Of a stretch of DNA of 64,000 nt, positions 1-52,954 are shown piece by piece. How positions within the stretch are numbered: position 1 is the first letter of the stretch; every line of letters begins with the position of its first letter. Made by a program: the position numbers and the translations under genes. The notes beneath the pieces are model-generated. The model was given only the letters and a program-made list of their open reading frames with translations, was not told the DNA's origin and did not search any database. This DNA comes from Escherichia coli. Its GTDB lineage: Bacteria; Pseudomonadota; Gammaproteobacteria; Enterobacterales; Enterobacteriaceae. The DNA lies in the NCBI RefSeq assembly GCF_003790525.1, contig NZ_CP033635.1; one strand, 5' to 3'.

Positions 1-38
1 GCTGCAGCGCCAGGTGGAAGAAGAGAACGTGGAGGGGC

Positions 39-773
39 GTGATGAATAATGATGCAGCACGTCAGGAGCAACTGATTAAACGGATAAGAAAACTGCTGGC
101 GCTGAGCCGGAATAACAGTAATCCCCATGAGGCAGGTCAGGCTCTTTCCCGCGCACAGGCGCTGATGCGGAAGCATGGTATCACCGAACTGGATGCTGAT
201 ATTTCGGTGATAAAAACCTCATCATCAAAGGGAGCACCGTCAGAAGCGGAAAAAGTTCCGGTATGGATGGGGCGTCTTATGAATGTTGTTGCAGGGGCAT
301 TCGGATGCCATACATACCTGGATTGGCGTATCACAACCGGAGGATACTGGCGGCGGATTGTCACATTTTATGGTTTTGGGGAGCGTCCGGTTGTGGCTGC
401 GTATGCCTTTGATGTTCTCTGCCGGCAGATGCAAAAGGCGACAAAAGAGTATCTCTCAACCCAGAGCCGGAAATTAAAACACTCAACCCGTCGTGCAAGA
501 GCTGCGATGTTTCGTGACGGCTGGGTTTATGGGGTGCGTGATGTGGTGGATGCATTCCGGCTCACGGAAGATGAGACGCGTGTAATGAATACGTGGCTGC
601 AGAACCAGCAATTTGAGGGAATGGTCGTCTTCCGGGAGGTAAAGGACTGCCATGGCGGTGACCATGCACGCTGGCAGGGATACAACGAGGGGAAAAAGGC
701 AACGCTGAATCACGGTGTTGGTTCCCGGGATCTGAGACCGGAAAGCCTGATATCAGGCGGAGGTGAGGTATGA
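39..773 (+). CDS. conserved island-associated hypothetical protein (DUF2786-like)
   Basis: 244-aa ORF; N-terminal basic helical region; resembles hypotheticals at the edge of SPI-7-type islands by recollection only. Confidence 0.35.
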   Translation: MMNNDAARQEQLIKRIRKLLALSRNNSNPHEAGQALSRAQALMRKHGITELDADISVIKTSSSKGAPSEAEKVPVWMGRLMNVVAGAFGCHTYLDWRITTGGYWRRIVTFYGFGERPVVAAYAFDVLCRQMQKATKEYLSTQSRKLKHSTRRARAAMFRDGWVYGVRDVVDAFRLTEDETRVMNTWLQNQQFEGMVVFREVKDCHGGDHARWQGYNEGKKATLNHGVGSRDLRPESLISGGGEV

Positions 774-1348
774 GTAATAACTTGTCACAGGCCACCAACG
801 GACTGTTGATGCAGCTGGTGATGGATCTCAAAAGTGGCTATCTGCGCCGCTGTGAAGCGCTGGGGCTTTCCCGGGAAGAAATGCAGATGCTGCAGGGGCT
901 GAGTATTGAGGAAATTCACTATCTGTCAAATTCAGAGGTGTCAGTGCTGCGGCTGGATATTAACCACAATAACCTTGTACGCATGCTGCAGCAGGCCAGG
1001 ACTGAACAGAAACGCCTGCAGCGAATCGATCGCGCTCTTGCACTGGGGGGATCGATTGAACTCATGGCGTTTTATTTTGGCCTTTCCAGTGTGGACGTTG
1101 CAGCACGGCGCCGTATTTCAGGAATTGATGTGCGCCCGGGGCGGGGTATCACACTCAGCGATGATGAAAACTCTGAACTCTGGAGACTGTGGCAGAAAGC
1201 AGGGATTAACGATGTGGAGAGCGCTGACGGGCTGGACGTCATGATGCTCTGTGCAGAGCAGATGAATATCCCGCTCACGGCCGTCTGGCATGCTGTCAGG
1301 GGGTGGCATACAGCCGGAAGCCCTGAACAGGTAAGGAATGCGTCATGA
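770..1348 (+). CDS. STY4526/YPO1902-family pathogenicity-island protein (putative)
   Basis: 192-aa ORF, start overlaps upstream stop (operon-like); family assignment from memory of N-terminal motifs. Confidence 0.4.
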   Translation: MSNNLSQATNGLLMQLVMDLKSGYLRRCEALGLSREEMQMLQGLSIEEIHYLSNSEVSVLRLDINHNNLVRMLQQARTEQKRLQRIDRALALGGSIELMAFYFGLSSVDVAARRRISGIDVRPGRGITLSDDENSELWRLWQKAGINDVESADGLDVMMLCAEQMNIPLTAVWHAVRGWHTAGSPEQVRNAS

Positions 1349-5289: not shown

Positions 5290-6555
5290 ATGGCGCTACC
5301 TGCAGAAAGCCTTATTGCGCATACGCTCAGAAAAATGAAGGCCAGCATGGCAGAGAAAGCCAGTCGTGAGGACGGGAGGATACGCAGTGGGCTGTTGTTT
5401 ACCGGCAATGTTCACGATTCGTATCCCCGCAGGCTGTTGCTGGATACGCGCCTTTCTCCCCTTGATAAAACTGCGTGGATGATGATTCGTCTGCATGCCC
5501 TGAATAATGAGGGCGCAGTATTTCCGACGTACGATGAACTGCAGTTACAACTGGCATCTCCCGGGTGCGGGAAGGCGTCCCGTGAAACAGTGAGCCGGGT
5601 GCTGACAATGCTGCGGCTTACGGGCTGGCTGAGTCTGTGTAAGCGGGTCAGGGATGAAAAAGGGCGGGTCCGGGGGAATATTTACGCCCTGCATGATGAG
5701 CCACTGACCTGCTGTGATGCAGAAAAGTTTGACCCACGATACCTGGATATGGTTCTGGATACTGTGAGCAGGAGCCGGAACAAGACAATCCGGCACACAG
5801 CCAGTGAAGTGCTCAGTGATATCAAAAATGAGCCCGGTATGCGGCATTACCACAGCCATATCACTCTGTTTGAATCGCGTATGGGGGCAGCACAGACACC
5901 TGGTCAGCTGGCGGCGCGTCAGCGGGTGAACCCGATGGTGAATGAAAACACAGGCAGAGAGAGTGGTTCGGATTCCGTACATACCCCTGCACCTGTCGTG
6001 CAGGTAACCGAACTCAGTGCTCCGTTAACCGAACTCAGTGAAAAACAGGAAATGAGCCCACTCAGTTCGGATTCCGTACCGCCTGAAAAATCAGTAACTT
6101 ATCACTCGGTTCGGAAACCGAACAATTACGTACGTAATATCACACACAGTGTGATTAAAAATACGTACGTATTGCCTGAGTCGGTGAAATCGCAAATCAG
6201 CACAGAAGACACGGACATGCTGACAAAACAACTGCAGGCGTTGCCGGAAGAACTGGCAGGTAGTGTGCTGAGCAGCCTGTCACAGATGCTCAGCAAAAAC
6301 ACGCTCCAGAATCCGGTTGGCTGGATGCTGGCTGTGATGAAACGTGCGCGTGAGGGAAGTTTTAATACGCCGGATATGTCCGTGCATGAATCCCGGTCGC
6401 CAGCCCGTGCACCATATCAGCCTGTGTACAACCGTGATGAACGTGAACGTCGTCGCAGGAAAGTGGCGTCACCTGAAACGGTGAGCAACATTGTCGCAGA
6501 ATTCCGTGCCAGCCTGAAACGTGCAAATGCTGCCCGTCTGGCGGCGCGTGTTTGA
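5290..6555 (+). CDS. STY4528-family pathogenicity-island replication protein (putative)
   Basis: 421-aa ORF with AGGAG RBS; family name from memory; immediately followed by iteron-like tandem array. Confidence 0.45.
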   Translation: MALPAESLIAHTLRKMKASMAEKASREDGRIRSGLLFTGNVHDSYPRRLLLDTRLSPLDKTAWMMIRLHALNNEGAVFPTYDELQLQLASPGCGKASRETVSRVLTMLRLTGWLSLCKRVRDEKGRVRGNIYALHDEPLTCCDAEKFDPRYLDMVLDTVSRSRNKTIRHTASEVLSDIKNEPGMRHYHSHITLFESRMGAAQTPGQLAARQRVNPMVNENTGRESGSDSVHTPAPVVQVTELSAPLTELSEKQEMSPLSSDSVPPEKSVTYHSVRKPNNYVRNITHSVIKNTYVLPESVKSQISTEDTDMLTKQLQALPEELAGSVLSSLSQMLSKNTLQNPVGWMLAVMKRAREGSFNTPDMSVHESRSPARAPYQPVYNRDERERRRRKVASPETVSNIVAEFRASLKRANAARLAARV

Positions 6556-7381
6556 TGGTTAAAAATCGTACGGTGTTGGCAGTGCCAACAGTGGTTAAAA
6601 ATTGTGCGGTGTTGGCAGTGCCAACAGTGATTAAAAAATGTACGGTGTTGGCAGTGCCAACAGTGGTTAAAAATTGCGCGGTGTTGGCAGTGCCAACAGC
6701 GGTTAAAAAGTGTACGGCGTTGGCAGTGCCAACAGTGATTGAAAAATGTACGGTGTTGGCAGTGCCAACAGTGATTAAAAAATGTACGGTGTTGGCAGTG
6801 CCAACGGTGATTAAAAAATGTACGGTGTTGGCAGTGCCAACAGTGGTTAAAAATTGCGCGGTGTTGGCAGTGTCAACAGTGGTTAAAAATTGTGCGGTGT
6901 TGGCAGTGCCAACAGTGATTAAAAAATGTACGGTGTTGGCAGTGCCAACAGTGGTTAAAAATTGCGCGGTGTTGGCAGTGCCAACAGCGGTTAAAAAGTG
7001 TACGGCGTTGGCAGTGCCAACAGTGATTGAAAAATGTACGGTGTTGGCAGTGCCAACAGTGATTAAAAAATGTACGGTGTTGGCAGTGCCAACGGTGATT
7101 AAAAAATGTACGGTGTTGGCAGTGCCAACAGTGGTTAAAAATTGCGCGGTGTTGGCAGTGCCAACAGTGGTTAAAAATTGTGCGGTGTTGGCAGTGCCAA
7201 CAGTGATTAAAAAATGTACGGTGTTGGCAGTGCCAACAGCGGTTAAAAAGTGTACGGCGTTGGCAGTAGCAACAGCGATTAAAAAATGTACGGTGTTGCC
7301 AGTGGCAACAGTGGTTAAAAAGTGTCCGGCGTTGCCAGTGGCAACAGTGTTTGAAAATTGTACTGAGTTGGCACTGCCAAC
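6556..7381. repeat. tandem array of ~23 x 36-bp repeats, each with a 17-bp palindrome TGTTGGCA-G-TGCCAACA (iteron/centromere-like)
   Basis: Read directly: 36-bp period (palindromes at 6574-6590, 6610-6626, ...), unit GTTAAAAATTGYRCGG + palindrome; last copies carry symmetric variant TGTTGCCA-G-TGGCAACA. Confidence 0.9.
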
Positions 7382-7486
7382 ATGACGTAATTTCAGTCAT
7401 TCCTTTTTTTATTTTTGATTGTCAGATCTCCGTCTGCAGGCTGACTATTTCAGCCCGATATCCTTTTCTTTTGCCGGAGATATAAC

Positions 7487-8212
7487 ATGTCTGAAGAACA
7501 AATGAAGGAACCCGCATCCCGTCGTGTAGGTGCGCTTACTTCACCAGTGAATATCGAGTTGCACTCCCGTTATGCAATCATGCTGTGGGAAGGGAGACGA
7601 GGCACGAAAAGTAAAAGTGCTGAAGATCGCAGGGCAGCGAAAATAATGAGTATGCCGGAAGCTATTAAGATGACTGGCGGCCTCTACAGAGATTCTCTTG
7701 CTGATAATCCCTATGCGGATGAAACGATGTGGAAAGTTGAAAATGCGATTGTTGAGGCAACCGATAAAATTAATGCTGAAGTTCGTGTACTTGAAGGGAT
7801 CCTCAGAAATATTCCGTCAGTGATCACTGTCCGGGATGCTCTTTCTCGTTCTCCTGTCGATATTGGGGTTTTCAGCCGCTCTCCTCTGGGCTACCGCTGT
7901 GTATGGCTTCTTGTCGGGTATGATCAGCTTGCATTAAAAACGTTTCAGGCAGCACATCTGGGGCTTATTTCACGAAACAGGCGTGATGAGTTGTTGTCTT
8001 CTGGTGCGCATCTTATCCGCAAAATTTACGGTATTCTGCAGGGGTATCGCACTATGGCGGTAACTCGGGATGATATTGAGAATAAAACAGAAAAGGCAGA
8101 GAAAGCTATTGCCCGTTATGGTATGCCTCATGATGATATTCTATCCGGTAAGCTCAGATCTTCATTTTCTCCGCCCCTGAACCGTAAGTCCCGTGATGCA
8201 TCCCGGCAATGA
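7487..8212 (+). CDS. conserved ICE-associated protein
   Basis: 241-aa ORF between repeat array and topB; position conserved in this island class by recollection. Confidence 0.4.
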   Translation: MSEEQMKEPASRRVGALTSPVNIELHSRYAIMLWEGRRGTKSKSAEDRRAAKIMSMPEAIKMTGGLYRDSLADNPYADETMWKVENAIVEATDKINAEVRVLEGILRNIPSVITVRDALSRSPVDIGVFSRSPLGYRCVWLLVGYDQLALKTFQAAHLGLISRNRRDELLSSGAHLIRKIYGILQGYRTMAVTRDDIENKTEKAEKAIARYGMPHDDILSGKLRSSFSPPLNRKSRDASRQ

Positions 8213-8228: not shown

Positions 8229-10247
8229 ATGCGTCTCTTTTTGTGTGAGAAACCTTCACAGGCCGGTGATATAGCCAGAGTACTTGGGGCTGCCAGACGT
8301 GTTGATGGTGCGATTGAAGGTAAGGACTTTGTTGTGACCTGGGCCTTTGGTCACTTGCTGGAGCAGGCGCCACCGGAGGCGTATGGTGAGCAGTTTGGCA
8401 GTCCCTGGAAAATTGACGTTTTGCCGGTCTTTCCTGAACAGTGGCAGATGGTGGTGAAGGATAATGTCGGGAAGCAGTTTAATGTGATCAGCCGCCTTCT
8501 CCGTAAGGCTGATGAAGTGGTGATTGCCACTGACGCCGATCGTGAAGGCGAAATTATCGCAAGGGAACTGCTGGATTATTGTGGTTATACCGGCGTTGTG
8601 CGCCGTCTCTGGCTGTCCGCACTGGATGAGAGCAGTATCAGGGAGGCGCTGGGCAGGATACTGCCCGGAGAGGAGACCGAGAAGTTATATGAAGCCGGTA
8701 AGGGACGCAGCCGGGCTGACTGGCTGACGGGGATCAACCTGACGCGTCTGTATACCCTGAAAGCCAGGGAGTGTGGTGTGTCCGGCGTCCTCTCTGTTGG
8801 CAGGGTGCAGACGCCCACGCTTGCGATGGTGGTCAGACGGGATGCAGAAATCAAAAATTTTATTCCGGTACCTTACTGGCAACTGTATCTCTGGCTGGAG
8901 AAGGACAATGTGCGTTTTCGTACCTCCTGGATTGCGGCAGCGCAGTACTGCGATACTGAAAAACGGTGTGTGAATGTGCAGGCGGCAACAGCCGTCCTGT
9001 CACAGTGTCGTCAGGCCGGTGTTGCTGTTGTCAGGGATGTCAGCAGCAGACGGGAGAAAAAGCAGCCTCCGCTGTGTTTTTCGCTCGGAACGCTGCAGGA
9101 GGTCTGTTCGCGCAAATTTGGCCTCGGCGCGCAGGCCGTTCTTGATATAGCCCAGTCGCTGTACGAAAAGCATAAGGCGACAACATATCCGCGTACAGAT
9201 TGCGGTTATCTGCCTGTGTCGATGTACAAAGAAGTGCCTGACGTACTGGCAGCGCTGGAAAAAACCGATCCGGATATTGCCCCGGAGCTGGCAAAACTCA
9301 GTCCTGATATTGTGTCGGGGATCTGGAACGACAGGAAGATCACCGCGCATCATGCGATAATCCCCACCCGTCAGCCGTTTAATATTGGGGCGCTGAGTGA
9401 TAATGAGCTTAAGGTGTACCGGTTAATTCGTCAGCATTATCTGGCTCAGTTTTTACCCGTTCAGGAGCTGGATGTCACAGAGGCCACTTTTCTTGTTGCG
9501 GGGCAGTTGTTTGGAACGCGGGGGCGAGTGGAGGTTGTCAGGGGATGGCGTGCGCTTTTTGTGTCAGATTCGGCGGGAGAGGAAGAGGATGTTGCAGACG
9601 ATGAGCAGGCGATGCCCCTTCCCGTACTGGCAAAAGGCGATGAATGTCGTCCTGCTGAAGCTGAACTCAAAGAGATGCAGACCACGCCACCGCGTCATTA
9701 TACGGAAGGCACGCTGATTGCGGCGATGAAAAACGCTGCGGGGATGGTGAGTGATCCGGCACTGAAAAAAGTGTTACGCGAAAATGCGGGGCTGGGCACT
9801 GAAGCGACCCGCGCAGAAATACTGGAAACGTTGTTCACCCGCAAATATATCGAGAAGCAGGGTAAGCATATCCGTGCCACGCAACTGGGGGCGGAGCTGA
9901 TAGCGGGATTGCCGGAGGCGCTGACCAGTCCGGGGACAACGGCGCTGTGGGAACAGGCTCTGGATGATATTGCACAGGGTAAACTGTCACTGTCGTCATT
10001 TATGGAAAAGCAGAAACAGTGGCTTAACCACCTGGTGGCCGGTGCAAGGCAGCAGCAACTGCAGATCACGGCACCGGTTACGCCGGCATGCCCTCTTTGT
10101 GGGAGCAGAATGCGGAAAGTGAAGATGAAAAGCGGGAAAGGGGAATTCTGGAGCTGCCAGCGTTATCCGGAGTGTAAGGGAGTGATTTCAGAGCAGAAAC
10201 CGACATCCGGGAAACGGGGCGGCAGAAAAATTAAAAAGCATGGATGA
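8229..10247 (+). CDS. topB: DNA topoisomerase III
   Basis: N-terminal Toprim motif MRLFLCEKPSQAGDIARVLGA, conserved topoisomerase IA core, C-terminal zinc ribbon CPLCGS...CQRYPEC. Confidence 0.9.
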   Translation: MRLFLCEKPSQAGDIARVLGAARRVDGAIEGKDFVVTWAFGHLLEQAPPEAYGEQFGSPWKIDVLPVFPEQWQMVVKDNVGKQFNVISRLLRKADEVVIATDADREGEIIARELLDYCGYTGVVRRLWLSALDESSIREALGRILPGEETEKLYEAGKGRSRADWLTGINLTRLYTLKARECGVSGVLSVGRVQTPTLAMVVRRDAEIKNFIPVPYWQLYLWLEKDNVRFRTSWIAAAQYCDTEKRCVNVQAATAVLSQCRQAGVAVVRDVSSRREKKQPPLCFSLGTLQEVCSRKFGLGAQAVLDIAQSLYEKHKATTYPRTDCGYLPVSMYKEVPDVLAALEKTDPDIAPELAKLSPDIVSGIWNDRKITAHHAIIPTRQPFNIGALSDNELKVYRLIRQHYLAQFLPVQELDVTEATFLVAGQLFGTRGRVEVVRGWRALFVSDSAGEEEDVADDEQAMPLPVLAKGDECRPAEAELKEMQTTPPRHYTEGTLIAAMKNAAGMVSDPALKKVLRENAGLGTEATRAEILETLFTRKYIEKQGKHIRATQLGAELIAGLPEALTSPGTTALWEQALDDIAQGKLSLSSFMEKQKQWLNHLVAGARQQQLQITAPVTPACPLCGSRMRKVKMKSGKGEFWSCQRYPECKGVISEQKPTSGKRGGRKIKKHG

Positions 10248-10514: not shown

Positions 10515-10815
10515 TTGACTTTATTTATGGCTGTTTTAAAAATGAGCATGCTAAATAGCTGCTTTGCAGCCAACCAATCTCCCGGTGGTCTGAGAGGGAG
10601 GCTTACGCGACCACACTGTCATCTTCGGATGACCAGCCAATGTTCCAGCAGTCTGAGAGGAGCGCCTTCGGGTGACTGCCAGCCAATGTTTCAGCGATCT
10701 GAGAGAAACGCCTTCGGGTGATTGCAATATCCTCGTAGCCTGAAAGGGGATGCCTTTATGGCGGTACATCCGTTTAGCCTCTGGGAACGGATATCACCAC
10801 TGGTGATTGAGGTAC
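10515..10815 (+). ncRNA. candidate structured RNA or ssDNA element with three hairpin modules (copy 1), unclassified
   Basis: -35-like TTGACT at 10515; modules at 10587-10612, 10649-10678, 10695-10724 each with outer stem, UGAGAG-rich internal loop and CGCC-UUCG-GGUG tetraloop stem; extra hairpin GTCATC-TTCG-GATGAC at 10618-10633. Confidence 0.45.
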
Positions 10816-10937: not shown

Positions 10938-11402
10938 ATGTCTGCAACTAACTCTACTTCTGCAAAAACTGAATACTTCAACCTGACCATGAAAGGTCTT
11001 GGGTATCTCAGCAATGTACGTCAGGTTAACCATCAGAACGGTTCGTTCCTCAGCTGCGTGATTAACGCACTGAGTGGACCAACGGACAATCCGTCCTATA
11101 CGCGTTTTGATGTCACGGTTGCCGGTAAAGAGGCGACCACCCTGATCTCCCGCTGCCAGAAAGCAGTGGATGAGGACCGCAAGGTACTGCTTGGTTTTAC
11201 GTTAAGCAACCTTGCCACCGACATTTTCACCCTGAACAAGGGGGAGCATGCCGGTGAGCAACGCGTCAGCCTGAAAGCCCGCCTGATCAAGGTGGACTGG
11301 ATAAAAATAGGCCAGGAGCAGGTCTATAAGGCTGAAAAAGCGGAGTCCCAGCCACCGAGCCATGGCACCACAAAACGTGAATACGCAGAAGACTCCTTCT
11401 GA
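10938..11402 (+). CDS. STY4534-family ICE protein (putative)
   Basis: 154-aa ORF with GGAGAAA RBS; family assignment from memory, uncertain. Confidence 0.4.
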   Translation: MSATNSTSAKTEYFNLTMKGLGYLSNVRQVNHQNGSFLSCVINALSGPTDNPSYTRFDVTVAGKEATTLISRCQKAVDEDRKVLLGFTLSNLATDIFTLNKGEHAGEQRVSLKARLIKVDWIKIGQEQVYKAEKAESQPPSHGTTKREYAEDSF

Positions 11403-11501
11403 TCGCGTATTTTTCTCACTGCCTCCCTGATAAAGAAAACAGACCACCATCAGGGAGGTCTGTTTTCTTATTGTTTTTACTGAACTTTAAGGAAACAAAT
11501 T

Positions 11502-11717: not shown

Positions 11718-12275
11718 ATGGCTTCACGCGGCGTAAACAAAGTTATCCTGATAGGACATCTGGGGCAGGATCCGGATATCCGGTATTTCCCCAATGGCGG
11801 TGGCGCTGTGGCGAATCTGTCACTGGCGACCAGCGACACCTGGCGGGATAAACAGAGCGGTGAAATGAAGGAAGTTACTGAATGGCACCGCGTTGTTCTC
11901 TATGGAAAACTGGCTGAAGTTGCCGGCGAGTACCTGCATAAGGGGTCGCAGGTGTATATAGAAGGCCAGCTTAAAACCCGTAAATGGTTTGACCAGCAGA
12001 ATGGTGTGGACCGTTATTCAACTGAGGTTGTTGTGGGCGTGAATGGTGTCATGCAGATGCTGGGTTCATCGCGTCAGCAGGGCGCTTCCGGTAATGGTGC
12101 TTCAGCACTGGCACAAGGGGGCCAGGGACATCCGCCGAAGACGACCGGACAGACTGGTCGTGCCACCCGGACGACGTCAACGGGTAATGGTGCTCCACCA
12201 ATGGACTTTGACGATGATATCCCCTTTATGGGGCTCGGGTATGGCATGGAACGACGAATTATTCATGCCATGTAA
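11718..12275 (+). CDS. ssb: single-stranded DNA-binding protein
   Basis: OB-fold N-terminus [28 protein letters not shown], Gly/Gln-rich linker, acidic tail DFDDDIPF. Confidence 0.92.
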
Positions 12276-12285
12276 TATTAACCAC

Positions 12286-12308
12286 GGGGCGTTACGCCCC
12301 ACTTTTTT
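12286..12308 (+). terminator. rho-independent terminator after ssb
   Basis: GGGGCG-UUA-CGCCCC hairpin followed by T6 run. Confidence 0.6.
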
Positions 12309-12321
12309 ATCCGGAGGTTCC

Positions 12322-13290
12322 GTGAGTGAAAAAGTTAACAAAATCACTATGATTCATGACGGGGCGTTCAAGAAGACGCTTGAAGATCCCGCCGCAGTAA
12401 GGGACTTTCTTGAACAGGTCTTGACACACGATCAGATATCCCGCTGTAATCTTGATACAATAGAAGTTGAAAAGAATTCGTTCGTGACGGAAAGTTTGCG
12501 TCAGCATGCCTGTGATGTTTTGATCAGCATGAAGACAAACGACGGCAGGGACGGATACATTTATACCTTAATCGAGCACCAGAGTTCGCCGGATAAATTC
12601 ATCCCGCTGCGTATGATGCGATATATCCTGGCTGTAATGGAGCAACATGTTGAAAAGCATAAGTGTGCACCTGTGGTGATCCCCGTGTTGTTTTATCATG
12701 GTGCAATGCGGCCATATCCGTATCCGCTGAACTGGGTGGATTGTCTGGATGACCCGGAGTACGGACGGGAGATTTATGGCGAGTCAAAGTCATTCAGTCT
12801 GGTGGATGTCAGTACGCTTGATGATGATGAAATTGAGCAGTATCGCCGGATGGCGGCGCTGATGTACACCATGAAGTCCGGAACTCAAGGTGATTTGATT
12901 GAGCTGATTGGTAAATCGATCACACTGACGGATAAGTATGGCAGTAGCATTCACCTGAATACGGTGCTTACTTATCTGATGGAACTTTACCAGATGGATG
13001 TTGCTGAACTTTTTGAAGCAATATCCACACACTATCCCAGCCATAAGGGGGTGATTATGACGATAGCGGAACAACTGGAAGAGAAAGGTCGGGTTGAAGG
13101 TCTGGAGAAAGGCCTTGAGAAAGGCCTTGAGAAAGGCCGTGCTGAAGGCCGTGCTGAAGAGCGTCAAAAAGCGCTTGCAGAAACTTATGCATCTGTCCGT
13201 CGCATGAGCGATATGGGGATGTCAACGGAAGTTATTAAGCAGGCACTTCATCTTTCTGATGAACAGATTCAGGAAGCGCTTAATAATTAA
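12322..13290 (+). CDS. rpn: Rpn-family recombination-promoting nuclease (YhgA-like, PD-(D/E)xK)
   Basis: GTG 12322 four nt after GGAGG; motifs IEHQSSPDKFIPLRMMRY and VIPVLFYHG; C-terminal GLEKG repeats; track ORF 12043..13290 extends upstream in frame. Confidence 0.7.
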   Translation: MSEKVNKITMIHDGAFKKTLEDPAAVRDFLEQVLTHDQISRCNLDTIEVEKNSFVTESLRQHACDVLISMKTNDGRDGYIYTLIEHQSSPDKFIPLRMMRYILAVMEQHVEKHKCAPVVIPVLFYHGAMRPYPYPLNWVDCLDDPEYGREIYGESKSFSLVDVSTLDDDEIEQYRRMAALMYTMKSGTQGDLIELIGKSITLTDKYGSSIHLNTVLTYLMELYQMDVAELFEAISTHYPSHKGVIMTIAEQLEEKGRVEGLEKGLEKGLEKGRAEGRAEERQKALAETYASVRRMSDMGMSTEVIKQALHLSDEQIQEALNN

Positions 13291-38795: not shown

Positions 38796-39070
38796 TTGAC
38801 GATAGCTTTTTTCTTTTGTTATTCTGTACCCGCTTTAACTGTCGCTTCGGCGACCAACCAATCTCCCGGTGGTCTGAGAGGGAGGCTTACGCGACCACAC
38901 TGTCATCTCAGGATGACCAGCCAATGTTCCGGCAGTCTGAGAGGAGCGCCTTCGGGTGACTGCAATATCCCATGAGCCTGGAAGAGGATGCCTATATGGC
39001 GGCAACATCCGTTTAGCCTCTGGAAACGGATGTCACCAGTAGCTGGTGACTGAGGTACGTTATTTTTACC
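38796..39070 (+). ncRNA. candidate structured RNA or ssDNA element, two modules (copy 2)
   Basis: -35-like TTGACG 38796; hairpin GTCGC-TTCG-GCGAC; modules matching copy 1 A and B; terminal hairpin GTCACCAG-TAGC-TGGTGAC + T-run near 39031-39068. Confidence 0.45.
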
Positions 39071-39818
39071 TTCGGATTACCCGTACGGTTTTGTATGTCA
39101 TGAAACTTACGAGTTTTCCTCTCGCAGAGTGGCGAAAATGCCTTATATATCTGCGTCTTAAAGATTTTCTGTCTGGCTGCATGAGCTTCTTGTGACTGTG
39201 CGCACGGCATAAGGCCATTTGAAATTTGGCTGCTTGCGTGTGTACGTGGAGTCTGAAGCTGTGCGGCGTCACTTGCGTGCGACCGGAGGGAACACCAAGT
39301 GACGCCACAACAATCTGCCCTGAAAGCAGCATCACGTAAGGCCAGCCAGAAAATCGTCGCTCGTGACCAGCGTTCTGATGACCGTTTCGTCTGTCTGACA
39401 GCGTCTTTCAGTAACGTGTCCATGCCTTTCCGGCGCGTCCGTTTTCACGGACGGCCACGCCGGAATGTCTTTTTAAACTTCATAATACATGAGAGGTAAG
39501 TGTATTAAATAGTTGAAAAAAGGAATAAATATGAAAAATCGTTCTGATGTCGGAAGGCGTCATCGTAAGATGACGGGGAGTAAAAAATCGCCCTGGTGCA
39601 CAGGTAGCGAACTCCTGTAAAAACTCAACATGTGCAAGCTCTGCTACATCGACATCAAACGAGCCAGGAAGGCGAGCAACCGCGTTACAGAGCCGTCCGT
39701 GATGACGAAAAACTAACAATATCAACGATCTGGTCTGTTTATCGGAAGGGCATCTCATGCAGTTGAACTTTCAGAACGGATGGTTTTCTGCATCTTTTTT
39801 AACAGGGGGATTGACGTT

Positions 39819-41593: not shown

Positions 41594-41890
41594 TTGAAGT
41601 TTTATGCAGTTTGTGCTTACAATTTAAACGCTAACTTGTCGCTTCGGCGACCACCAATGTTCCATGTGGCCTGTGAGGAACGCCTTCGGGTGGCCCACGT
41701 CGCTCCGGCGACCACCAATGCTTCATCTGACCTGTGAGGAGCGCCTTCGGGTGGTCAGTTTTACACCTCCTGAGCCTGAAAGGAGCTGTGCGTGCTGAAG
41801 GGATATGTTCCCGGAAGTACGGGCAAATCTGCGCACCTTTGAGAGCAGATGTCACTGCGGTTTTCCGTGATGATGAAGGCTTTTTTATCA
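41594..41890 (+). ncRNA. candidate structured RNA or ssDNA element, two modules (copy 3, divergent)
   Basis: TTGAAG (41594) and TACAAT (41618) promoter-like pair; two modules with stems GUGGCC/GGCCCAC and CUGACC/GGUCAG around UGUGAGGA-CGCC-UUCG-GGUG; T-run near 41881. Confidence 0.4.
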
Positions 41891-49437: not shown

Positions 49438-51474
49438 TTAGTTCCTTACCACCAAATCTAAATCAATAGATTTTTTATTAGCATAACTTTTTAGTGCTTC
49501 ATTGAGTTCCATCTGTTTCGCACTTTCGAAGTTGCTGCCATAAAATACAACTTTGTTAGGGGCAAAGTCTTTGTCTGCATCCAGCTTTTGAAGTAAAGCT
49601 TTCAAAGCCTCACTTGTGAAATTAGGCGCAATTAGATATAGCCGACCATCGCACAAGTGTGCTTTGTAGCCATTAAGGTCAATATCTTCAATTGGTGTTG
49701 TTAGCAAGCTGCCATCATACACGCACCATGTCGTCAATAGAGTGTCATACTGCTCTGGTGTCAATACAGCATCGTCAAAGAAACTAAGATTAGAAAGCGT
49801 AAGTTCAGACTCATCTTTCACTCGAAAATTATGAACTGTTTCAAATATTTTAAATCCCAAATCTCCATTATAATTAGGATTATCTTTTTTCAGCTTTTTT
49901 CCTGCCTTAATAATTCTGTCTTTTGTTATATTGAAGATGGATTTATACCCTTCTTTATAGGCTTGTTTCTTTTTATCTGTTTCTTCATCTAATTGAACAC
50001 AGATGAAGTTTCTTTTCCTGCCGTCTTCAATATTTAACTCCAGAATACCATGAGCTGTAGTTCCAGAGCCAGCAAAAAAGTCAAGATAAATGTCTTTATC
50101 TTCGGCTTTTACTGAACCAAATAGTGTTTTTATTAAACTTGTTGGCTTCGGGTAGGAGAAATATCCTTTCCCACCAAAAAGATTTTCAACCTCAACACCA
50201 CCATCACTTTTAGTTGAAATAATTGATCTTAGTAAAAACTCTTCAACTTCATCTAAAAATTTAACCGAACTGGGTTGGGTGTTTTCTGTACTGGCAAACC
50301 AAATTCCACCACAAATAACGCTACCATCATGTAGTTTTTTGATATCTGCATACTTTCCATCTATTCTTTTTGCAATATGATTAAAAGTGCCTTCTTTCCA
50401 ACGCCAGCCTCTGTCTGGGATTTTGACAGGGTTATTAGTCAAAGGGTGCAATACTTCATACGTGGGTCCAAATGAATCTGCATTAGGCCAGCTCATATTA
50501 ATTTTACCCCATGGCCTATAATCTTCGTTCAAACAGTTGTAAAGAGTAATTCCACGATCATATCCGTTGGAGCTGTAGAATTTTTTGAGTTGCTGCTCTG
50601 CTTTATCTAATGGCACCTTCTCCTTTTTTAACTTTTCAATAAACTGATATACATCATCAATACCATCTTTCCGCATTAAAAATTCTTTACTTATTTCGTT
50701 ATTCTTCGCATAAGCAAGGATGTACTCATGGATATTACCAATACCCTTATCATTTTTAGGGATACGTTTATTCCATACAATATTTTCTATGAAATTTGCT
50801 TCGCCAAAAATTTCATCACAAATAGTTTTAAGTTGATTTAATTCATTTTCGTCAATCGAAATAAATATCACACCATCTTCACGTAGAAGCTCACGAGCAA
50901 TATATAAACGAGGATAAATGAACGTTAACCATGCGCTATGGCTGCTTGAACCATTCGTGGTAAATTCAAGTATACGTTTAGCCTCATCAAGATCGATACC
51001 TGCCAGATCAGAAAGCTGTTCAGGTGTAAACTTGCGATCATCGTTATAGGCGAATCCATCCTTACCTGTATTGTATGGTGGATCAATGTAAATCATCTTC
51101 ACCTTTTCAGAGTAAGCATTAACCATATGCTTCAATACTTCGAGGTTATCCCCTTTGATTAACAGATTCTGACTGTTTTTGTTCTCTTCACGTTGGTTAT
51201 GGTCTTTATCTTCGGAGAGTAATGTCTTCGGCGGCAAGTTAGCTAACAGACGGGCATAGGATTTACCAAGCCAGTTCAGGCTGTATGATTCTTTGGAGAG
51301 TTCAACATCCGATGATTTGACGATTTCAAGCAATTTTTCCTGAATGAACGCTCCATTTTTATCAAAACACTGTGGAAAGTTAGCCTTTAAAATCGCAAGC
51401 TGTTTACTGTTTGTGGTTTCAGTTTCAGAGAAAAGAGTTTCTTTTTTCAGTTGAAATTGGGGTTGTGTATTCAT
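49438..51474 (-). CDS. mod: Type III R-M N6-adenine methyltransferase Mod
   Basis: DPPY motif (IYIDPPYNTG) before FxGxG motif (LDFFAGSGTTAHG); N-terminus resembles EcoP15I-type Mod; GGAGGT RBS. Confidence 0.88.
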   Translation of the reverse strand: MNTQPQFQLKKETLFSETETTNSKQLAILKANFPQCFDKNGAFIQEKLLEIVKSSDVELSKESYSLNWLGKSYARLLANLPPKTLLSEDKDHNQREENKNSQNLLIKGDNLEVLKHMVNAYSEKVKMIYIDPPYNTGKDGFAYNDDRKFTPEQLSDLAGIDLDEAKRILEFTTNGSSSHSAWLTFIYPRLYIARELLREDGVIFISIDENELNQLKTICDEIFGEANFIENIVWNKRIPKNDKGIGNIHEYILAYAKNNEISKEFLMRKDGIDDVYQFIEKLKKEKVPLDKAEQQLKKFYSSNGYDRGITLYNCLNEDYRPWGKINMSWPNADSFGPTYEVLHPLTNNPVKIPDRGWRWKEGTFNHIAKRIDGKYADIKKLHDGSVICGGIWFASTENTQPSSVKFLDEVEEFLLRSIISTKSDGGVEVENLFGGKGYFSYPKPTSLIKTLFGSVKAEDKDIYLDFFAGSGTTAHGILELNIEDGRKRNFICVQLDEETDKKKQAYKEGYKSIFNITKDRIIKAGKKLKKDNPNYNGDLGFKIFETVHNFRVKDESELTLSNLSFFDDAVLTPEQYDTLLTTWCVYDGSLLTTPIEDIDLNGYKAHLCDGRLYLIAPNFTSEALKALLQKLDADKDFAPNKVVFYGSNFESAKQMELNEALKSYANKKSIDLDLVVRN

Positions 51475-51531: not shown

Positions 51532-51659
51532 GTTGCGTTGCGTTGCGTTGCGTTGCGTTGCGTTGCGTTGCGTTGCGTTGCGTTGCGTTGCGTTGCGTTG
51601 CGTTGCGTTGCGTTGCGTTGCGTTGCGTTGCGTTGCGTTGCGTTGCGTTGCGTTGCGTT
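51532..51659. repeat. pentanucleotide simple-sequence repeat (GCGTT)n, ~25 copies, 58-185 nt upstream of mod start
   Basis: Read directly: uninterrupted gttgc/gcgtt tract from about 51532 to 51659. Confidence 0.95.
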
Positions 51660-51940: not shown

Positions 51941-52954
51941 ATGGATGAGAAGCTAAAACATGCGGATTTATCGTCTTTGCCAGAGCAGGTGAGGGTTGCC
52001 GCTAGGGAGCTTGTTGACCTGAAGTTTCGTATCGATATGGCAGCAAGAGGCGGTACGTCAGGGATACCACTTGACCTGCATGGGAGGATGACAGGAGGAG
52101 AATGGGGGCCGCATTGCGGGCTGGAATTTTTCTGCAGCATCATTCCTTTTTTCCCGCGAGATTTTGAAACCTGTTCAGTAACTGAAATGTTGGTTCCTAC
52201 CTTACATACCTTCGGCTGCAACTGGCGTTGGTGGCCCGATCGTTATTGTAGCGACAAAGATGAACACTATATACGGCGTCACATTTTTTCTGATTACGGG
52301 CTGAAAAGTACGAGCTATACCTTCATTCCTCAGTTGGGATTGTTCTGCCCGAGTGAAGGTAAAAATCGTGTTAACTTCTGCCGCCATCACGGTATCGAAT
52401 ATATCCCCGCACAGGTTTATTCCCATGATTACCCAGAAGCAAATCGAATCTCTGTGTACGTTCAGGATACTGCCGGAGGGCTGGATGTGTGGGCCGTTCT
52501 TGATAATCGCTATGTTCAGAAGGTTACTCACTATGCCTTTGCGCTCCCACTTTTGTGCGCTTATGGGGTAGAGTTCCCAGGTAAGTGGCCAGCAGGATGG
52601 CCATCGATATCGGACCTCCTGGCTAATCAACTGTGTTGCACTGATGACACAACCTTTCATAAACCCGTGATCGATATGCAAGCTGTCAGGGATACGCTGG
52701 ATCGTGATGAGAACAGCAGAGAGGATGGGGAGATGTATGTCAAAACCAATGTGGTTGAGCTGCCGCTGGCCGGGCTGGTTCGCTTCATTCTGATCGCAAT
52801 GTTACTGAGTTTAGGTGCGTTGTTCATCCACGAGGTACTGGATGAGGGAAGCCTGTCCAGGATTGCACTGGGAATAAGCACTTTCACGGCTGGCGTGGTT
52901 GCTTCGTTTTTTATCCCAGCGTTCCGTATCAAGAAAAAATATCTTCGCAAATAG
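51941..52954 (+). CDS. hypothetical protein with two C-terminal TM helices
   Basis: 337-aa ORF, Cys/Trp/His-rich soluble domain, hydrophobic helices near residues 280-330. Confidence 0.4.
   Translation: MDEKLKHADLSSLPEQVRVAARELVDLKFRIDMAARGGTSGIPLDLHGRMTGGEWGPHCGLEFFCSIIPFFPRDFETCSVTEMLVPTLHTFGCNWRWWPDRYCSDKDEHYIRRHIFSDYGLKSTSYTFIPQLGLFCPSEGKNRVNFCRHHGIEYIPAQVYSHDYPEANRISVYVQDTAGGLDVWAVLDNRYVQKVTHYAFALPLLCAYGVEFPGKWPAGWPSISDLLANQLCCTDDTTFHKPVIDMQAVRDTLDRDENSREDGEMYVKTNVVELPLAGLVRFILIAMLLSLGALFIHEVLDEGSLSRIALGISTFTAGVVASFFIPAFRIKKKYLRK

Follow-up and report, generated by a model that had tools for sequence, protein, structure and literature searches.

One of the closest described counterparts of the locus considered here is found in ICEclc. 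The locus is a tandem array of 36-bp units (positions 6556..7383) in a stretch of 64,000 nucleotides of Escherichia coli DNA (contig NZ_CP033635.1, assembly GCF_003790525.1; hereafter the window), and it resides on an integrative conjugative element (ICE) of the pKLC102/PAPI-1/SPI-7/ICEclc family. BisD of ICEclc (CAE92953.1) has 550 aa, the motifs G92NTR95 and E136NELR140, a long linker and a C-terminal activation domain (PMC12409273). It forms foci on two 23-bp palindromic bisS sites, where its enrichment in chromatin immunoprecipitation (ChIP) is maximal; it hydrolyses cytidine triphosphate (CTP) given bisS DNA, extends from there over about 50 kb of the ICE, following the direction of transcription, and, together with BisC, activates the transfer-competence promoters (Antar et al., NAR 2025, PMC12409273). 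BisC carries DUF2857, and the gene order in ICEclc is parA-shi-bisD-bisC-orf96323-orf95213-inrR (PMC7423338). It must be noted that binding, CTP hydrolysis and spreading have been demonstrated for ICEclc only; the proteins are likened below by architecture and motifs.

In the F plasmid, the sopC centromere is a row of 12 repeats of 43 bp; SopB binds the 16-bp inverted repeat that each of them contains, and sopC is located directly after sopB. In RK2, the ParB-family CTP clamp KorB uses odd-length palindromes (OB sites), which are dispersed singles and not tandem; KorB regulates distant promoters with a partner protein and represses over short distances.

Repeats homologous to those of the window are known from pKLC102 (57 bp x 15), PFGI-1 (46 bp x 4) and ICEHin1056 (36 bp x 4.6), in each case between genes of the STY4528 and PFL_4669 families and with a TG-N-TG ... 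CA-N-CA dyad. They carry the label of an iteron origin, given from sequence only: the region was annotated as a putative oriV (PMC2647930; PMC2258188), the ICEHin1056 paper describing oriV sequences that resemble iterons for this family (PMC2258188). In the PFGI-1 and ICEHin1056 accounts (PMC2647930, PMC2258188) no experiment was found to back these labels.

The array of the window is probably a tandem set of parS-like (bisS-type) sites for a ParB clamp of BisD type encoded by the ICE. Four direct observations carry this reading, i.e., (i) the anatomy of the array, (ii) its conservation, (iii) the fold and motifs of the ICE ParB and (iv) the co-variation between this ParB and the site.

Tandem Repeats Finder, run on the window, returns 6556-7382 with a period of 36, 23.0 copies, 89% matches and 0 indels. 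Slicing every 36 bp gives 23 units in exact register throughout (6556..7383, no strand assigned), and unit 1 starts at the base following the TGA stop of the 421-aa STY4528-family open reading frame (ORF; 5290-6555). The initial annotation, which had described about 23 tandem 36-bp repeats with a 17-bp palindrome directly after a STY4528-like gene, is thus borne out in number, period and position. Each unit is made of the 17-bp palindrome (8-1-8) and a 19-bp spacer with an oriented G-N-T-T-A5 box. Fourteen units contain the 17-mer TGTTGGCAGTGCCAACA unaltered, and 5 further units differ from it by one mismatch. At up to 3 mismatches, 44 strand-matches are obtained (0.26 expected by chance), all within the array and none elsewhere in the 64-kb window. 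No extra copy of the dyad, e.g., in a parA promoter, was found elsewhere in the window or, for E. coli 64.1, in 14 kb of upstream sequence. The core of the array (units 1-19, 6574..7238, no strand assigned) holds TGTTGGCA-G-TGCCAACA centred every 36 bp, and these palindromes are the proposed binding and loading sites of a ParB/BisD-type protein.

The promoter-proximal edge (units 20-23, 7240..7383, no strand assigned) is divergent, as seen from unit-by-unit cutting. Unit 20 is CGTTGGCAGTAGCAACA, an asymmetric form with a broken dyad; unit 21 is TGTTGCCAGTGGCAACA, with both arms altered; unit 22 is CGTTGCCAGTGGCAACA; unit 23 is AGTTGGCACTGCCAACA, with its centre flipped. Units 21 and 22 belong to a symmetric variant class, TGTTGCCA-G-TGGCAACA. 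The symmetric and centre-flipped variants noticed beforehand in the last units are therefore present (units 21, 22 and 23), and the asymmetric unit 20 comes in addition. The symmetric variant is the main site class in other ICEs (loci L006, L060, L079 and L030/L033/L036), and end units that diverge from a homogenised interior are found in the window, in L003, in L067 and in pKLC102. Since unequal exchange yields such a pattern, the symmetric variant is explained without any special role for these units. Moreover, units 2-8 recur as units 10-16 (identity of 0.94 at lag 8 vs. about 0.89 at other lags), which indicates that the array grew by block duplication.

Conservation was surveyed with one genome per species, giving 80 loci (L004-L083) whose STY4528 homologues show 43-61% identity. 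The order STY4528, gap, PFL_4669, TopB is usually preserved. About 65 of the 80 Enterobacterales loci have at least one dyad of 15-17 bp, of the form TG[TC]TG-N7-CA[AG]CA, some 5-500 bp past the STY4528 stop; the dyads are present in 1-9 copies, usually spaced by 36 bp or arranged in higher-order units of 105-108 bp (3 x 36). The outer bases are kept as TG[TC]TG ... CA[AG]CA while the inner three vary (GCA, CCA, ACA, CGG, CCC, CAC and others). In every case across these loci the two arms change together, in a compensating manner, so that the selection on palindrome symmetry proposed from the variant units is supported at the scale of the family.

In Photorhabdus the dyad is TGATTAGA-G-TCTAATCA. 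ICEHin1056 has its 4.6 units of 36 bp downstream of the STY4528 homologue, with the dyad TGTAAAG-GGG-CTTTACA. In pKLC102, whose repeats were read directly from the sequence record, the same place is occupied by 15 units of 57 bp with the dyad TGGTGCCA-C-TGGCACCA; these are the 57-bp «oriV» repeats. The 46-bp repeats of PFGI-1 have the dyad AGTGTTGTGGGCCACACCACT. Both pKLC102 and ICEHin1056 have the order ParB-DUF2857-STY4528-repeats-PFL_4669, and it follows from this shared order that their modules and that of ICEclc correspond.

The number of units was calculated, for 29 complete E. coli genomes, from the distance between two unique flanks. It is 13, 16, 18 (the commonest), 19, 21, 24 or 26, the window having 23; the array length is a multiple of 36, or 36n-1 in one sub-lineage. 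The comparison of repeat number between related islands, proposed in the initial annotation, thus gives a range of 13 to 26 in close E. coli relatives. These arrays equal or exceed the largest of the pKLC102, PFGI-1 and ICEHin1056 arrays. In E. coli ICEs that are more distant, 6.3 and 14.3 units are counted.

Three loci of Pantoea and Enterobacter (L030, L033 and L036) are organised differently. Their gap between STY4528 and PFL_4669 is 101 bp long and has no dyads; instead, the part of parB that codes for the linker contains 2-4 TGTTGCCA dyads spaced by 36 bp (e.g., L033, 8531-8655), and one further site is located farther downstream. The embedded dyads are translated as ...VASGNT... repeats (VA[ST]GNT) in the disordered ParB linker. 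The site array and the gene of its presumed reader thus overlap in these loci.

The ParB gene lies about 6 kb upstream of the array, almost wholly to the left of the window, which holds its last ~49 nt (1..49, + strand, placed by the coordinate offset between the window and the relative L001); its sequence was taken from the 98%-identical ICE of E. coli 64.1 (L084:1679-3328, minus strand; protein WP_001696182.1). The protein matches NCBIfam TIGR03764 (ICE PFGI-1-class ParB) with 379 bits. A Pfam search gave no match, nor did a sequence search of the PDB, and the fold was for this reason established through an AlphaFold (AF2) model, built from a 45-sequence alignment, and Foldseek. In the model of the 549-aa protein the predicted local distance difference test (pLDDT) score is >88 over residues 30-300 and about 430-547; the linker is predicted to be disordered over 301-430 and the C-terminal domain to be helical over 432-547. 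The predicted helix-turn-helix (HTH) consists of helix 168-177 and helix 184-197, the latter opened by residue 184, and residues 211-215 open a helix modelled over 211-232. The best 33 Foldseek matches of the model in the PDB are all Noc, KorB or ParB (KorB, 8qa9, E = 2.7e-6). The motifs G93-N-T-R96 and E135-N..R139 are invariant. As modelled, the ICE ParB has the architecture of ICEclc BisD: an N-terminal CTPase domain and an HTH are joined by a long linker, predicted to be disordered, to a C-terminal domain that is helical.

The palindrome co-varies with the ICE ParB and not with STY4528. Whole-protein distances, compared with the palindrome class for 8 backbone proteins, are not informative here (area under the curve of 0.75-0.82, nearest-neighbour concordance of ~50%) because shared ancestry hides the signal; this test was replaced by close-pair contrasts, a per-column scan and a tree-based count. 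The close pair is a natural swap between two E. coli ICEs, L002 (TGTTGGCA) and L003 (TGGTGGCA), which have near-identical backbones and different palindromes. ParA differs by 3 residues, DnaB by 2, DUF2786 by 3, PFL_4669 by 5 and TopB by 6. STY4528 is 98% identical, with 10 scattered differences of which none is in the N-terminal winged helix. ParB has 25 differences, 13 of them clustered at residues 161-192, i.e., in the HTH.

Every alignment column of the 8 backbone proteins was then scored, after removal of near-duplicates, by the mutual information divided by the entropy (MI/H). Base 3 of the dyad (T/C) is perfectly predicted by ParB residue 184 (MI/H = 1.00): where the base is C the residue is Asn or Asp, and where it is T the residue is Ala, Tyr, Phe, His or Ser. 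The runner-up among all columns belongs to TopB, at 0.47. ParB residues 215 and 212 give the two highest scores for bases 6-8. All 16 loci with G at base 6 have Arg215, and Thr or Gln is found with A; base 8 reaches MI/H = 0.84 at residue 212. No STY4528 column tracks the palindrome, none being above 0.20 for base 3. As a phylogenetic control, a ParB tree was built without the HTH region. On this tree base 3 changed 11 times and the class of residue 184 also 11 times, 10 of these changes falling on the same branches as those of base 3, and none of 20,000 random placements was as good.

The comparison with the systems described above can be summarised as follows. (i) The likeness to ICEclc concerns the ICE family, the module (parA ... 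parB/bisD, DUF2857/bisC, STY4528-like, ..., ssb) and a ParB-like protein of ~550 aa that combines the CTP motifs GNTR and ENxxR with an HTH and, after a long linker, a helical C-terminal domain. Both elements have perfect palindromes with an odd centre as sites, located a few kb downstream of the gene and upstream of inward-transcribed ICE genes. Here, however, the sites are 23, tandem, of 17 bp, intergenic and separated by an A-tract spacer, whereas bisS consists of two single 23-bp sites (GAGCTATCCCCnGGGGATAGCTC) within genes, 2 kb apart; apart from the odd-centred palindrome no likeness between the array site and bisS was found. A site unlike bisS is what is expected if specificity diverges, as it does within the Enterobacterales. 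(ii) With F sopC the array shares tandem direct repeats, one dyad per unit for a dimer of an HTH protein of the ParB family, a ParA partner on the element and more copies than a single site would need. It differs by its location, ~6 kb from parB with parA and parB split by dnaB, by its period (36 vs. 43 bp), by its odd dyad centre and by the extra activation-type C-terminal domain of ParB. (iii) With RK2 it would share the kind of clamp, the odd-length palindrome and the regulation of distant promoters with a partner protein. What is new is the site sequence, the arrangement in tandem with as many as 26 copies and a specificity code that can be read; the kind of protein and the logic are those of ICEclc bisS and F sopC.

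In the proposed mechanism, one ParB dimer would sit on each 17-bp dyad through the recognition helix (184-197) and the start of the next helix (~210-215). By analogy with ICEclc BisD, the dimers would close there into CTP-bound clamps, and the clamps would slide in the direction of transcription only, into the PFL_4669-topB-ssb-pil genes. There they may assist the DUF2857 protein (BisC) in switching on the transfer genes and/or furnish ParA, on the excised element, with a complex for partition; to act as a centromere together with ParA is equally possible and does not exclude the former. A large number of sites in tandem would make loading faster or the complex larger, and copy number would drift through unequal recombination.

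Several points weigh against this proposal. The argument is one of correlation, ParB does not stand out by whole-protein distances, and the ParB sequence is that of a 98%-identical relative, the gene not being in the window. The palindrome shares no sequence with ICEclc bisS. A symmetric ParB dimer does not explain the oriented A-tract box of the spacer, and a pure ParB-site model does not require the tight linkage of the array to the 3' end of STY4528 seen in most loci. Two loci depart from the code. L032 (Xenorhabdus yunnanensis, 11220-11470) has the ParB HTH signature of the TGTTGGCA class with sites of GTGTGCCC type, namely GTGTGCCCGTGGCACAC, and no TGTTGGCA site is found anywhere in its 14.5-kb locus; it may be a recent mosaic. 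L070 combines Asn184 with a mixed array.

The spacer box and this linkage could also point to a composite unit, in which the dyad binds ParB/BisD and the G-N-T-T-A5 box a second factor (STY4528 or a host bending protein), the array being a ParB loading site plus an origin, an operator or an architectural element. The box begins 3 bases past each dyad, is oriented and flanks even single dyads on both sides. Its offset and orientation are fixed across 68 dereplicated loci, with A at position 8 in 60/68 and G at position 3 in 59/68. The 36-bp period is kept from E. coli to Haemophilus despite the divergence of the dyads, which favours such a unit and suggests either a spacing constraint or an inherited 12-codon unit. 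On the contrary, the box is missing in the coding-embedded array of L033 and in pKLC102 (GC-rich spacer, 57-bp period) and is inverted in L022, so that it is not essential to the family, and the A-tract may serve merely as a bend or a narrowed minor groove. A composite unit is on the whole unlikely, even if the box itself may be a DNA bend or the site of a second factor.

An iteron-type oriV, in which the repeats bind the STY4528-family protein as the initiator of the excised ICE, is quite improbable. The published putative oriV is exactly at this location (pKLC102, PFGI-1, SPI-7 and ICEHin1056), the array starts within bases of the STY4528 stop in most loci, even where the downstream genes are displaced, and SPI-7-type DnaB, ssb and topB are nearby. 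An origin may be an additional function of the array, but this reading fails the tests that could be run. No STY4528 column follows the palindrome; most of the invariant STY4528 columns are in the winged-helix region (~residues 35-135, 45-sequence alignment), among elements whose palindromes differ; the L002 and L003 proteins are nearly the same and their dyads are not; and the arrays of L030, L033 and L036 are in parB, not beside STY4528. The units are 36-bp units with a dyad and not 17-22-bp direct repeats in helical phase. No DnaA box is found within 600 bp of the array (the nearest DnaA-like box, with 1 mismatch, is at 8013), no AT-rich unwinding element adjoins it (flanking GC of 0.43-0.46), and the PFGI-1 authors state that no Rep protein is encoded (PMC2647930). 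The initial annotation had offered «iterons or centromere». Its cis-acting protein-binding array is supported and its parS-like centromere is essentially the option favoured here, with ParB and not STY4528 as the co-varying protein, while iterons read by the upstream 421-aa protein are not upheld.

It is very improbable that the array is a purely structural element, i.e., that its palindromes extrude as hairpins or cruciforms, e.g., for priming after conjugative entry, without any sequence-specific reader. The fold of one unit as single-stranded DNA (7-bp stem, 3-nt loop, -6.4 kcal/mol, z = -2.9) and the compensating changes of the arms would suit it. The outer TG[TC]TG / CA[AG]CA bases are however kept in sequence, beyond what pairing needs, specific bases co-vary with specific ParB residues, and Rfam gives only sub-threshold chance matches over the array (noise of miRNA models).

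A genuine repeat protein encoded by the array is hardly credible: the ORFs of 277 aa (+) and 175 aa (-) exist, coding sequences are placed over the array in several relatives by the Prokaryotic Genome Annotation Pipeline (PGAP) and the related array of L033 is truly within coding sequence, as part of the ParB linker, but the consensus unit is open in 4/6 frames only because it has no stops, unit-to-unit differences are mostly non-synonymous in every frame (synonymous/non-synonymous from 6/47 to 22/38), the strand chosen by PGAP is inconsistent (+ in L001, - in L003, none in L002), the sole family match of the 277-aa ORF has 23 bits against a cut-off of 450, and copy number goes from 13 to 26 among near-identical elements. 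The array is non-coding, and the two ORFs are artefacts, as had been supposed at the outset.

PGAP «hypothetical protein» records cover the array in the window, L001, L003, L087 and L088 (e.g., WP_052908495.1 and WP_086353580.1). Their strand and length depend on copy number alone. Records of this type are probably spurious, and they recur as a «hypothetical protein» in the RefSeq annotation.

The genes around the array are those of the ICE family. The window is 94.5-98% identical to E. coli chromosomal islands over the full query. The genes of E. coli 64.1 are, in order, ParA, two small genes, a DnaB of SPI-7 type, the ParB-family gene, DUF2786, DUF2857, a ParE-like gene, variable small genes, the STY4528-family gene, the array, the PFL_4669-family gene, TopB, a STY4534-family gene, ssb and PilL. 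In the window, the 3' end of the BisD-like parB is followed, two genes downstream, by the DUF2857 gene (770..1348, + strand), which agrees at 100% identity with the «DUF2857 domain-containing protein» that PGAP annotates in L001 and corresponds to bisC of ICEclc, the partner of BisD; in pKLC102 and ICEHin1056 the two genes are directly adjacent. The STY4528-family gene (5290..6555, + strand; NCBIfam NF040582, 392 bits) encodes 421 aa with a winged-helix domain that has only weak, initiator-like fold matches, and its name «pathogenicity island replication protein» is an annotation, not an experimental result.

The intergenic region between the last unit and the start codon of the PFL_4669-family gene (7384..7486, + strand, delimited on the sequence) is where the downstream operon presumably has its promoter. 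Outside the repeats no promoter of consensus type was found, and the sigma-70-like matches inside the units (TTGGCA-16-AAAAAT, 9/12 positions) arise from the repeat itself. The PFL_4669-family gene (7487..8212, + strand; TIGR03761, 238 bits) is the first ICE gene downstream of the array, with synteny kept in most loci, and is followed by topB (8229-10247). The counterpart of ICEclc inrR may be the PFL_4669-family gene or the following DUF3158 gene, and no exact positional equivalence with bisS-1 is claimed.

Other repeats are present in the window and its relatives. The STAXI motif (RF01728), a known structured motif near ssb, topoisomerase and anti-restriction genes, occurs in three + strand copies (10617-10770, 38901-39060 and 41637-41808; 139, 89 and 83 bits). 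These are tandem units of 46-61 bp that contain GCCTTCGGGTG (5 cores vs. 0.01 expected). A similar 47-bp array follows topB in a Citrobacter locus (L082, 9419-9552). An EFASI RNA motif (RF02957, 77 bits for a gathering score of 51) is located at 39539-39661 (+), between two STAXI copies. Tandem repeats of 12 and 24 bp (AAGGCCTGGAGA-like) are found at 13081-13159, within a 415-aa ORF (12043-13290). A perfect microsatellite, (GTTGC) x 25.6, at 51532-51659 is flanked by ORFs of 678 aa (-, 49438-51474) and 337 aa (+, 51941-52954); it could be a phase-variable spacer or promoter tract.

A wider proposal, tentative and somewhat doubtful as it stands, is that the «oriV iterons» of the whole pKLC102/PAPI-1/SPI-7/ICEHin1056 family are loading arrays for BisD-type ParB. 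Their specificity would have diversified by a simple code that can be read, in which ParB residue 184 goes with base 3 and residues 211-215 go with bases 6-8, and their copy number, 1 to 26 sites, sometimes inside parB, would be a tunable input to a bistable transfer switch, more sites giving a faster loading of clamps. Diverged site classes would then insulate the ParB-site pairs of ICEs that share a cell. As to the avoidance of the same class by ICEs sharing a genome, nothing beyond chance is seen, since about 6 of 9 multi-element genomes have different classes and 3 have the same.

In E. coli, Salmonella, Klebsiella, Pseudomonas and Haemophilus, genes for virulence and resistance are found on ICEs of this family. 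For twenty years the annotation of their «replication module» has relied on sequence alone. Reading the array as a set of ParB sites implies that the published «oriV» label should be re-examined for the family; should the repeats be loading sites of ParB/BisD, many genome papers give the presumed origin a wrong label. What has been worked out on transfer competence and its control in ICEclc could then be tested directly in enterobacterial ICEs, where a clear cis element is at hand. The family would also offer a natural series of matched ParB-site pairs differing by few specificity residues, which would be useful for the study of the evolution of ParB specificity and as orthogonal pairs for DNA labelling.

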